Source of the DNA: Candidatus Eiseniibacteriota bacterium
Lineage (GTDB): Bacteria; Orphanbacterota; Orphanbacteria; Orphanbacterales; Orphanbacteraceae
Length of the DNA stretch: 42,342 bases
Assembly (NCBI GenBank): GCA_043809585.1
Contig: JBDROZ010000073.1
Location: 1 to 42,342, forward strand
Reading direction: 5' to 3'
Shown one piece after another: positions 35,744-38,866 of the stretch (the stretch's first letter is position 1; every line of letters starts with the position of its first letter). A model generated the notes under the pieces. That model was not told where the DNA came from, did not search any database, and worked only from the letters and a program-made list of their open reading frames with translations. Made by a program: the position numbers and the translations under genes.

Positions 35744-35759
35744 CCCCCCAAAACACAAA

Positions 35760-35783
35760 CGCGCTGGGGGATCCCCCAGCGCG
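35760..35783 (-). terminator. Terminator of the histone-like gene
   Basis: Perfect palindrome CGCGCTGGGGGATCCCCCAGCGCG followed by TTTGTGTTTT on the minus strand. Confidence 0.65.
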
Positions 35784-35815
35784 CTTCTCACAAACCGTGT
35801 TCGAAACCCCGCCCC

Positions 35816-36019
35816 CTACAGGTCGGACGGCTTCAGGGTCTTCCGCTTGTTGGCGATGGCGCGCTTCTCCGCCTCGCCGATCATGTCGCGGACCTTCCGG
35901 TCGAGGGCGCCGTAAAAGTCGCTCGAGACGTTGCACTTCTTCGCGCTGGCCTTGGTCCGGGTCTTGGAAATGATCAGTTCGGCGCCGGCGGCCTTCTTCA
36001 CCTTCTTCTTCGTGGCCAT
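35816..36019 (-). CDS. Bacterial histone-fold protein (Bd0055/DUF1931-like) with Lys-rich N-terminal tail
   Basis: LIISK..K.....NVSSDF..AL..KV..MI.EA..RA.ANKRKTLKPSDL fits the histone-fold singlet pattern; GGAGGA RBS and own terminator. Confidence 0.85.
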   Translation of the reverse strand: MATKKKVKKAAGAELIISKTRTKASAKKCNVSSDFYGALDRKVRDMIGEAEKRAIANKRKTLKPSDL

Positions 36020-36155
36020 TCTTCTTTCCTCCTGAGGGAAGGGACATTAGGGGGCCTACCCTGTACCGCCCGTGACTATACGCCCGATCGAAAGGGTGTC
36101 AACGGAAAAAACGCGGGGAGACGGCCTCTCCCGCCCGATTTCGGGGGGTTGGGGA

Positions 36156-38120
36156 TCAGGCCCCGTCCGGGCGGCCCGGGGGACGGCTTCGGAGAAGGGC
36201 GAGAGCGGACGCTCCGAGGGCGAGGGCCACGCCAACCGTGAGCGGGCCCGTCTCCTGGAGGCGCTCCCACCATCCCTCCCCCCGGGCGCCGAGGAGGGTG
36301 AGGGCGTTGTAGGCCCCGTGGAGGAGCATGGCCGGGAAGAGTGACCGGGAGCGGATCACCACCGCCCCCGCCGCGACGCCGAGGAGGGCGGTCGGCAGGA
36401 GGCGATAGATGCTGAGGTGGAAGAGGCCGAAGAGGAAACCCCCGAGGAGCACGGCCCGAAGCGGTGAAAGGACGCGGCGGTGTTGCCCGAGGATCAGCCC
36501 TCGGAAAAAGACTTCCTCGCATATGCCGGGAGAGAGGGCGACCGCGAAGAGAAGCAACCCGACTCCCGCCTCCCCCCCGCCCCCGAGCCGCTCGAACCCC
36601 TCCAGGAACTCCTCGGGGACCGGGAGAAACCGCCCTTGGACCCGGAAGAGGAGCTGGGCCGCCACGAGGGCGAGCGGGGCGAGGAGCAGGCCGGCGAGGG
36701 CGTGGCGCGCCGACGGCGCCCGCAGGGAGAGATGGCGCCGAAAATCGAGACCGTACGCCCGGGCGAAGACGAGGGTCGGCACGAGGAGGAACCCCCACAG
36801 GGTCAGCAGGAGGCCGGGGATCAGGCTCCTCGACTGGACGAGGGAACCGGCGTAGTAAAGCAGGAGAACCTCGAAGAGGTAGAATGCCATCACCTCCCGA
36901 ACCCGCACGGGGTCCGCGCCGGCGCTCATCCGCTCGGGCGGGCGCCGCCCGCCTCCGATCACGGCCGCTTCGCTCGCCAGGTACGCCGTCGCCCGCCGGA
37001 GAACCAGGGCGGCGTAGAGGGCGTTGGAGAGAACCACGACTCCGAGGAAGAGCCACGGGTAGTTGCCGACGAGCGCCTCCCGGACCGCCACGGCCACGTT
37101 CGCGATCGGAACGACGGAAACCACCGATTCGAGTTCCACGCCGGGCGCGATGGAGAAGGCGGCGGGAACCACGGCGATGAGAAGGGCGGGGAGCAGGAGG
37201 GTCTGGGCCTCCCGGTACGACCGGGCGTGGCTCGAGACGAGCACGAGAACGGCGGAGAGGAAGAGGGCGAGGGGAAAGGTGACGACGAGCACGACCAACG
37301 CCGTCGGGAGGGAGACTCGAAGTGACTCCCCCGTCCCCGGGCCCCCGATCCATCCGACCTTGCTGAAGAGGGCGCTCGACAGGAGAAAGAGGAAGGTGGC
37401 CGTGACCGCCGCCAGGACGACGGCCGCGAACTTGCCGGCCACCACCGCCCCCCGGTCCGCGAGGGAGGTGAGCAGGGTCTCGATGGTCTTCCGCTCCCGC
37501 TCCCCCGCGAAGAGATCCACCGCGGCGAATGAGGCGCCGTTCAGGAGAAGAAAGACGATGAGGAACGGGACCATCCTCCCGAGTTTTCCCCCGGCCATCC
37601 GTTCCTCGCTCGCGACGTTCCGGATCTCCACAGGAAGGACATCCCGGAGATGGGCCGCGCCGAGCGCCTCGAGGCGCTGGTCCCTCACCGTCTCCCGATA
37701 GGCCTCGAGCGCTTCGACCACCCGGTCCTTGGCGGTCCGCGAGAGTTCACGGGAAGCGGTGAAGAGAACCGTCACTTCCGGCGTTTCTGGAGCGCCGGCC
37801 TCCAGGGCTTCCGGAAGAAGCAGCGCCACGTCCGTCTTCCCCTCCTCCACGGCACGCCGGGGATCAATGGCGGAGACGATTCTCACGCCGGCCGCCCCGG
37901 CGATCGCCTCCCTCATCGGCGCGTTTCCGCCGACGAGAACGGCGGAGATCGACTCCCGATCGAGCTTCTCTTCGCCGTAGTCGGAGAGGCGGGCGGATCC
38001 GAAGATCAACACCGGGTGGATCACGATCGGGAAGACGAACATGGCGATGATCGAACGTCGGTCCCGGAGGAGATCGACCATCTCCTTCCGAAGAACGACG
38101 AGGGTATCGCGGAGGTTCAC
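36156..38120 (-). CDS. NatB-type ABC permease fused to a CPBP (Abi/CAAX-like) intramembrane protease
   Basis: KEMVDLLRDRR, AGERERKTIETLL, ARSYREAQ; C-terminal EEVFFRG, FGLFH and HGAYN motifs. Confidence 0.88.
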   Translation of the reverse strand: MNLRDTLVVLRKEMVDLLRDRRSIIAMFVFPIVIHPVLIFGSARLSDYGEEKLDRESISAVLVGGNAPMREAIAGAAGVRIVSAIDPRRAVEEGKTDVALLLPEALEAGAPETPEVTVLFTASRELSRTAKDRVVEALEAYRETVRDQRLEALGAAHLRDVLPVEIRNVASEERMAGGKLGRMVPFLIVFLLLNGASFAAVDLFAGERERKTIETLLTSLADRGAVVAGKFAAVVLAAVTATFLFLLSSALFSKVGWIGGPGTGESLRVSLPTALVVLVVTFPLALFLSAVLVLVSSHARSYREAQTLLLPALLIAVVPAAFSIAPGVELESVVSVVPIANVAVAVREALVGNYPWLFLGVVVLSNALYAALVLRRATAYLASEAAVIGGGRRPPERMSAGADPVRVREVMAFYLFEVLLLYYAGSLVQSRSLIPGLLLTLWGFLLVPTLVFARAYGLDFRRHLSLRAPSARHALAGLLLAPLALVAAQLLFRVQGRFLPVPEEFLEGFERLGGGGEAGVGLLLFAVALSPGICEEVFFRGLILGQHRRVLSPLRAVLLGGFLFGLFHLSIYRLLPTALLGVAAGAVVIRSRSLFPAMLLHGAYNALTLLGARGEGWWERLQETGPLTVGVALALGASALALLRSRPPGRPDGA

Positions 38121-38866
38121 GGCCGCTCCCCGCGGACGAGGGAGAGGAAGATCTTCTCGAGGAACCGCTCGCCCGTCCGGTGGCGGAGATCTTCGAGGGA
38201 GCCCGTGTCGAGGATCTTCCCCCGGTGGATGATCGCGAGACGGTCGCAGAGCCGCTCCGCTTCGCTCATGACGTGGGTCGAGAAGACCACGCATTTGCCG
38301 TGGGTCCGGCAATCCTCGATGTACGTCAGAAGGGCGTCGGCGACGAGAATGTCGAGGCCCGCCGTCGGCTCGTCGAAGATGAGGATCGGCGGGTCGTGGA
38401 CCACCGCGCGGGCGATGGAAACCTTTTGCTTCATCCCCGTGGAGAGTTTCTCGCAACGGACGCCGGCGAACTCGTGCATCTCGAAAAGAGCGATGAGGGC
38501 GTCCACCCGGGCCGGGAGCTTCTCCTCGGGGTAGTGGTTCAGGCGGCCGAAGTAGAGGAGGATCTCCCGGGGCGTCAGCCGCCCGTAGAGTCCCGTCTCG
38601 CCGGAGAGGTAGCCGATCGAACCGCGCACCGCCCGGGCCTCGAGGTTCACGTCGTAGCCGTTCAGGAGGGCCGTCCCGGACGTGGGCGAGAGAATCGTGG
38701 CGAGCATGCGAAGCGTCGTCGTTTTCCCCGCGCCGTTCGGGCCGAGGATCCCGAAGATCTCCCCCTCCACGCACTCGAAGGAAACCGAGTCGACGGCGAC
38801 CACGTCACCCCGCCTCGGGTCGTTGTAGATCTTGGTCAGCCGGTCGGCGGCGATCATCTGCGCCAT
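38117..38866 (-). CDS. NatA-type ABC transporter ATP-binding protein
   Basis: GPNGAGKTT, LSTGMKQKV, IFDEPT and STH motifs. Confidence 0.93.
   Translation of the reverse strand: MAQMIAADRLTKIYNDPRRGDVVAVDSVSFECVEGEIFGILGPNGAGKTTTLRMLATILSPTSGTALLNGYDVNLEARAVRGSIGYLSGETGLYGRLTPREILLYFGRLNHYPEEKLPARVDALIALFEMHEFAGVRCEKLSTGMKQKVSIARAVVHDPPILIFDEPTAGLDILVADALLTYIEDCRTHGKCVVFSTHVMSEAERLCDRLAIIHRGKILDTGSLEDLRHRTGERFLEKIFLSLVRGERP

Follow-up and report, generated by a model that had tools for sequence, protein, structure and literature searches.

The gene at 35816..36019 on the minus strand (-) of the window, by which we mean the whole 42,342-nucleotide stretch of DNA analysed here, is best explained as encoding a nucleoid-associated histone of the bacterial face-to-face (FtF) class that carries a lysine-rich N-terminal tail as an accessory, a reading to which we give a probability of roughly 0.8. 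By its residues, its profile matches and its modelled interface the protein is classed as an FtF histone and not as a histone of the Bd0055 type, the comparator chosen in the original prediction. Tailed bacterial histones are already known, and what the gene adds is a new member of the FtF class.

The histone gene is a stand-alone unit and probably well expressed

The open reading frame forms a cassette of its own, and its translation gives a product of 67 codons that begins with MATKKKVKKAAGA and continues as ELIISKTRTK...NKRKTLKPSDL, which is the 67-aa basic protein ending RKTLKPSDL that had been predicted. Codons 1-13 (35981..36019, (-)) encode the Lys/Ala-rich N-terminal tail, which has a charge of +5 and is disordered in the model, while codons 14-67 (35819..35980, (-)) encode an alpha3-truncated histone fold in which model and alignment place R53, N57, R59-K60-T61 and D66; the stop codon TAG follows at 35816..35818 (-). 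The whole protein contains 14 Lys, 5 Arg and 7 acidic residues and has a net charge of +12, made up of +5 from the tail and +7 from the fold.

Upstream of the gene lies a sigma-70-like promoter (TTGACA-16 nt-TATAGT, 36075..36102, (-)) that agrees with the consensus at 11 of 12 positions and is located ~55 nt upstream of the start codon. A 900-nt region contains one site of that quality against 0.1 expected from shuffles. A TTGACA -35 element is found at a similar distance in three of eight relatives from the same phylum (L169, L170 and L173), and promoter matches of at least 10/12 occur upstream of 17 of 86 related genes, compared to none of 84 control stretches. The Shine-Dalgarno (SD) sequence AGGAGG (36028..36033, (-)) is positioned 8 nt before the ATG, and downstream of the stop codon an intrinsic terminator (35747..35786, (-)) consists of a 13-pair G+C-rich hairpin (35786..35757) followed by the T-rich tail GTGTTTTGGG. 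This hairpin folds with -28.2 kcal/mol (z = -3.5), a value equalled by 1 of 200 shuffles. The strong ribosome binding site and the dedicated terminator of the original prediction are both borne out by these signals. As a second terminator-like hairpin (36116..36132, (-)) closes the ABC-transporter genes upstream, the histone gene would constitute its own transcription unit.

The third sign of high expression that had been put forward, biased codon usage, holds only weakly. The codon index of the histone gene (0.828) is above the mean of random 66-codon windows drawn from long ORFs (0.74 ± 0.087), yet 14.7% of these windows score equally high, so that the codon usage does not point significantly to high expression. 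All 14 Lys codons of the gene are AAG, which accounts for 85.5% of Lys codons in the long ORFs that served as a proxy for genes (993 kept of 3726 long frames). Taken from these sequence signals, the gene is a stand-alone unit and probably well expressed.

A histone fold with truncated alpha3 is predicted

In the AF2 monomer model the protein folds into helices alpha1 (residues 19-27) and alpha2 (33-56) and a one-turn alpha3 (64-66), with a mean pLDDT of 67.5, a moderate value of the kind to be expected when an obligate dimer is folded as a single chain. The pLDDT falls below 50 at residues 1-3, 6-12 and 14-16, giving block means of 47 for residues 1-10 and 49 for residues 11-20. When the model was compared with the PDB using Foldseek, the first four rows were HLp (9qt1, 9qt0) and HTkC (9f2c) at 33-34% identity and a probability of 0.99-1.0, with E-values of 0.019-0.073 and no row at or below 0.001. 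Chains of HBb occupy ranks 5-17 (E 0.28-0.65, probability 0.75-0.90, identity 18-21%) and are followed by eukaryotic H2B and NF-Y chains, all listed rows being histone-fold proteins. A three-helix histone fold with a shortened alpha3 is strongly supported by this modelling, which agrees with the alpha3 of just 3-4 residues and the shorter alpha2 by which alpha3-truncated histones are defined (Schwab 2024), and the structure prediction that had been proposed as a check therefore came out in favour of the histone fold.

Sequence searches against solved structures retrieve the same two proteins. The single sequence matches HTkC (9f2c) with an E-value of 1e-3 and HLp (9qt0) with 1.6e-3 in phmmer, and a profile built from a 37-member family alignment improves these values to 8e-7 and 2e-4, respectively. 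HBb is absent from the six matches of this profile at E<=10, and no histone other than HTkC and HLp was matched at that threshold. The comparison to prokaryotic histone classes that had been suggested is thereby resolved towards FtF histones. Two other assignments were tried and rejected. Pfam DUF1931 (PF09123) scores 14.1 bits over 31 residues only, below its cut-off of 21.8, and the chain contains a single fold, which speaks against a pseudodimeric DUF1931 protein. A nucleosomal archaeal or eukaryotic histone with a long alpha3 (PF00808) finds no family match either, as Pfam gives no match for the protein and no PF00808 match at E<=0.1 across the whole genome. A search of NCBIfam returned no family match for the histone.

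Modelling four copies of the chain resulted in a score of 0.87, compared to 0.00 for the best control, and the three runs share at least 98% of their contacts, with a partner pLDDT of at least 83. The mark used for this score is reached by 20 of 30 pair-solved and 1 of 23 single-chain proteins, a two-copy calibration that is rough for four copies. The model consists of a handshake dimer in contact with a third copy via residues 52-53, 56-57, 59 and 63-66, and this second interface is the counterpart of the HLp tetramer contact; tail residues are named in no modelled interface. As the predictor may already have known the solved tetramers of HLp (9QT0) and HTkC (9F2C), the score is to be read as likeness and not as binding.

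The residues of the FtF class are present

According to the accessible part of Schwab 2024 (PMC11390915), the FtF class is defined by a predicted torus-shaped tetramer and by conserved R, N, R, T and D at HMM positions 48, 52, 54, 56 and 61. In the phmmer alignment these positions correspond to R53, N57, R59, T61 and D66 of the protein, all of which are invariant in 37/37 aligned family members. They comprise the RxTxxxxD motif of loop 2 and alpha3 that marks alpha3-truncated histones (R59, T61, D66) as well as the dimer-dimer contact residues at the end of alpha2 (R53, N57). The accessible portion of the HLp preprint (Hu 2025, bioRxiv 10.1101/2025.05.08.652872) names R49, N53 and R55 as tetramer residues, with R55-D62 forming a clamp, and in the phmmer alignment to 9qt0 HLp R49, N53, R55 and D62 correspond to R53, N57, R59 and D66. 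An FtF homotetramer assembled through the C-terminus of alpha2, loop 2 and alpha3 is also what the four-copy model predicts.

The subfamily is conserved across phyla

All 364 proteins scored from a collection of 5.8 billion match the histone at E<=1e-3, the best at 7e-32. Among these, the best 120 have E-values between 7e-32 and about 1e-20 and, for the most part, a length of 62-70 aa; those with a label derive from MAGs assigned to Candidatus Eisenbacteria, Krumholzibacteria, NC10 and Planctomycetes. In some sources the relatives go under the names 'DUF1931 domain-containing protein' or 'histone H3/H4'. When 1.84 billion cluster representatives were searched with a profile, 486 matched at E<=1e-3, 86 of them at E<=1e-10. 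Among species-representative genomes a relative is encoded in 180 of 246 candidate stretches, and the 80 loci kept from these 180 share 58-85% identity with the histone over the matched segment. Their labels include Eisenbacteria, Latescibacterota, Krumholzibacteriia, Methylomirabilota, Planctomycetota, Myxococcota, Acidobacteriota and Spirochaetales, among others. On this comparison of sequences, the ORF is anything but a chance reading frame and represents a genuine conserved gene, whose subfamily is strongly conserved between phyla. Its own genome contains a single copy, and nine of the ten genomes of the phylum that were examined (the window's own counted) have one copy each, the sole miss being a genome that is 82% complete.

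The basic tail is translated and is conserved in composition

Translation starts were surveyed in the window's gene, in the 77 of the 80 loci in which the fold pattern was found and in eight relatives from the phylum, yielding 86 genes (84 unique), with an SD-like motif located 3-12 nt before the start codon taken as support. Such a start is present in 75 of the 84 unique genes; 71 of these 75 have at least five residues before the fold and 4 have none. The remaining nine genes have no recognisable SD, and in each a start is found upstream of the Lys-rich stretch. Ala is the second residue in 61 of 69 related genes. Over 85 tails (868 residues) the composition is 34% K, 32% A, 11% G and 5% each of R, P and S, and acidic residues (D/E) occur in two tails only; the window's own tail contains five Lys and no acidic residue. 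Similarly, all but a few of 121 proteins (the query and the best 120 of 364) begin with a basic stretch, the commonest lengths being 8 or 13-16 residues, and many proteins of 55-56 aa in the wider family have no tail. We conclude that the 13-residue Lys/Ala tail is translated and that, as far as sequence comparison goes, a basic tail is the rule in the subfamily. The lysine-rich, disordered extension of the original prediction thus stands, being preceded by an SD in front of the ATG, modelled with pLDDT below 50 and shared by 71 of 75 relatives, and the start lies upstream of the tail rather than downstream of it.

Within the phylum the tail is labile. With 13 residues the window's tail is the longest, followed by those of L167 and L168 (9 residues each), L166 (8 residues) and L169 (5 residues), and four genes (L170-L173) have a tail of 0 residues. 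The latter start with MA-DLIISK and have GGAGG or AGGAGG 6-10 nt before the ATG. The core is nearly identical across the nine histone genes of the phylum; that of the tail-less forms is less basic, K58 being replaced by Asn and G37 by Asp or Glu, and the net charge per monomer runs from +12 in the window's protein down to +3. Since four relatives from the same phylum do without a tail, it cannot be required for function. The conservation of the tail that had been anticipated therefore extends to its basic composition, while sequence, length and presence vary; as read from the sequences, the tail is conserved in composition only. The lability of the tail within a small phylum is a small new point of modest weight, and it possibly overlaps with the supplementary tail figures of Schwab 2024. 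The nearly identical cores with tails of 0, 5, 8, 9 and 13 residues in one phylum represent a natural series that would allow a clean test of the role of the tail.

Alternative readings of class, start and tail

A histone of the Bd0055/HBb 'bacterial dimer' type that has gained a tail, and that as a dimer would bend DNA or coat straight DNA end-on, would share its short alpha2/alpha3 architecture and its RKT loop motif with the protein, and HBb chains do follow at Foldseek ranks 5-17 with probabilities of 0.75-0.90. We nevertheless regard this reading as very unlikely, because R53 and N57 are both present, the two residues whose counterparts R48 and N52 the bacterial dimer class lacks according to the accessible text of Schwab 2024 (PMC11390915); because the family profile matches HTkC and HLp but not HBb at E<=10; because the identity in structural alignments is 18-21% to HBb compared to 33-34% to HLp and HTkC; and because a confident tetramer interface is modelled, which goes beyond the dimer, the largest confident oligomer of that class. 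Bd0055/HBb was accordingly a comparator from the wrong class. The tail could also be an annotation artefact, with translation beginning at the GTG of codon 7 or later and producing an essentially tail-less histone. This GTG is in frame and is the sole alternative start before the fold, a close relative (P0062) is recorded as a 55-aa protein starting at the fold, and the four tail-less relatives from the phylum truly start with MA-DLIISK. However, no SD motif precedes the GTG whereas the ATG has AGGAGG at 8 nt, P0003, which is 96% identical, has Thr in place of the GTG codon, an SD precedes the tail in 71 of the 75 relatives with an SD-supported start, a start with M-A is near-universal, and even initiation at the GTG would leave MKKAAGA before the fold, all of which renders an artefact barely credible. 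In the L167 gene that matches P0062, the start at the fold is a GTG without SD, whereas GGAGG is found 9 nt before an ATG located eight codons further upstream; the comparison of the two suggests that public start calls for the family are inconsistent and sometimes cut off the tail.

The tail might also serve as a regulatory platform in the manner of eukaryotic tails, with reversible acetylation of its lysines adjusting DNA binding and gene expression. Its five lysines are exposed in a disordered stretch, genes for one sirtuin and two deacetylases of the HDAC family are present in the genome, and lysine acetylation of bacterial nucleoid proteins is known in general. We consider this reading unlikely all the same, as no position of the tail is conserved beyond its composition, 4 of the 9 histone genes in the phylum's genomes have a tail of 0 residues, and no acetyltransferase or deacetylase occurs among the six largest of 14 listed neighbour clusters or beside the window's gene. 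The two deacetylase families are equally present in most control genomes (10/14 and 9/14), so that their presence says nothing specific, and the deacetylase genes were rejected as support for acetylation. Compared to a eukaryote-like regulatory tail, the protein has the disordered basic N-terminal extension but not the conserved modifiable positions, and in the literature we found no paper that tests the tails of bacterial FtF histones. Judged from the sequences, regulation by acetylation would be speculation that finds no support here. A further version of this idea, in which the tail is a fast-evolving 'charge dial' (0 to 13 residues, +3 to +12) whose long forms are reversibly acetylated and tune the wrapping or bridging of DNA, strikes us as quite improbable; if it were true, control of chromatin through histone tails would have arisen convergently and independently of eukaryotes. 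The preferred reading of the gene remains that of an FtF histone with the tail as an accessory.

Proposed mode of DNA binding

For such an FtF histone a mode of action can be proposed by analogy to HLp, to which it is only about 33% identical, and wrapping, tetramer formation and the role of the tail all carry the uncertainty of that analogy. In the accessible part of the HLp study (Hu 2025, bioRxiv 10.1101/2025.05.08.652872), SEC-MALS identifies a tetramer, crystal structures with DNA are reported, and simulations and assays support the wrapping of ~60 bp. The DNA contacts listed there include S14 and K15 at the start of alpha1, K17, K21 and loop residues such as K54, T56, T57 and R59, with S14-K15 touching the DNA backbone. 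In our alignment the DNA-contact counterparts are S18, K19, R21, K58, K60, T61 and K63, most of which are invariant.

By this analogy the protein would assemble into a dimer of dimers through the same interface as in the solved HLp tetramer. The tetramer would bind DNA without sequence specificity, either wrapping ~60 bp around its basic rim or bridging, and would compact the chromosome alongside the HU/IHF proteins. Tail residues 1-13 are expected to emerge from the fold just ahead of S18-K19, which correspond to S14-K15 of HLp. Since the tail ends directly before this DNA-contact point, the four disordered tails, each with a charge of +5, would be located on the wrapped DNA or in between, where we infer that they may serve as electrostatic arms, increasing affinity, stabilising the wrapped state or forming a bridge to a second duplex. 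With a length of 0 to 13 residues within a small phylum, the tail would be an adjustable accessory and not part of the core mechanism.

Comparison with characterised histones

Bacterial histones have been recognised only from 2023 on, and two of them, HBb and HLp, have been studied closely. HLp (Leptospira perolatii, PDB 9QT0-9QT2; Hu 2025, published as PMC12701072) has the same single alpha3-truncated fold of ~63-67 aa, a disordered N-terminal stretch and a gene that stands alone. Its residues R49, N53 and R55 are equivalent to R53, N57 and R59, its RD clamp R55-D62 to R59-D66, and its DNA-contact residues S14 and K15 to S18 and K19. The two proteins differ in that their identity is about 33% in Foldseek, that the aligned part of the HLp N-terminal stretch has acidic residues whereas the tail described here has five Lys and none acidic, and that in our protein the RKT position is still occupied by Lys (K60) and loop 1 contains an invariant Cys29. 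The hosts differ as well, as the genome analysed here has four HU/IHF genes and Leptospira has no HU according to the accessible portion of the preprint (Hu 2025, bioRxiv 10.1101/2025.05.08.652872).

HTkC (Thermococcus kodakarensis, PDB 9F2C; Schwab 2024, PMC11390915) is the best profile match among solved structures (E 8e-7) and shares both the fold and the class of torus-shaped tetramer, but it is archaeal and the residue aligned to N57 is not Asn. Archaeal FtF histones are described as generally lacking tails in the accessible part of that study (Schwab 2024, PMC11390915). Bd0055/HBb (Bdellovibrio bacteriovorus; PDB 8CMP, 8FVX and 9F0E) is likewise a bacterial alpha3-truncated singlet with an RKT motif and a nucleoid protein, but belongs to a class without the FtF dimer-dimer residues, is not matched by the profile and is 18-21% identical. 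The tails of eukaryotic core histones and Asgard archaeal histones are likewise disordered, positively charged and N-terminal to alpha1, where DNA passes. Compared to these, the tail described here is much shorter (13 residues), its sequence and presence are not conserved within the phylum, no modification of it is known, and nothing suggests common descent.

[quoted passage not shown] Bacterial or prokaryotic histones at large are described as mostly without tails in the accessible parts of two other sources (Hocher 2023, PMC10627809; Hu 2025, PMC12701072). The gene leaves the current picture of bacterial chromatin unchanged and provides an FtF histone from an uncultured high-G+C lineage whose nearest named relatives are labelled Candidatus Eisenbacteria. 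This lineage lies outside the four phyla named as main bacterial carriers in the accessible portions of Schwab 2024 (PMC11390915) and Hu 2025 (bioRxiv 10.1101/2025.05.08.652872).

Genomic neighbourhood and minor observations

By Pfam, the histone gene is convergent with acyl-CoA carboxylase genes on the plus strand (+) of the window. Upstream on the minus strand (-), behind their own terminator, lie the genes for an ABC ATPase (ABC_tran) and for an ABC-2 permease fused to an Rce1-like domain. The latter is a single long frame (36159..38774, (-)) that sits downstream of the ABC ATPase gene and encodes the ABC-2 type permease together with an Rce1-like (CPBP) intramembrane protease domain at the C-terminus. 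These neighbours in the window give no functional link to the histone. For the biotin carboxylase, the closest of the relatives found share 57-60% identity and belong to MAGs that are labelled Zixibacteria or are unclassified. In a wider survey, frames of at least 100 aa from the 80 related loci and the window were clustered and the six largest of 14 listed clusters were searched against Pfam. The largest cluster (36 loci) is the histone frame itself merged with upstream open frames, and no conserved partner gene was found among the 80 loci and the window, as no cluster includes the window's neighbours. A DUF6178 protein adjoins the histone gene on the opposite strand at 15 of the 80 loci, L082 among them, and is absent from the window.

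The same genome has four HU/IHF-family genes, so the histone need not be its main nucleoid protein. Three of these genes are located on contig C72 (73015-73284, 83879-84142 and 90362-90625), within 18 kb, and the fourth on C104 (371-637).

The wider family also includes tandem two-fold proteins of ~114-130 aa (P0164, P0175, P0180, P0181, P0185, P0220 and others), each fold of which ends in an N-x-R-K/S-T...D motif; these 114-130-aa proteins are presumably the known pseudodimeric (DUF1931-type) forms. Finally, C29 (35933..35935, (-)) in loop 1 (KKCNVS) is invariant in 37/37 members of the subfamily, and Phe, Met, Gln or Tyr is found at this position in distant family members. In the four-copy model C29 packs against loop 2 of the partner chain, and it looks like a packing residue.
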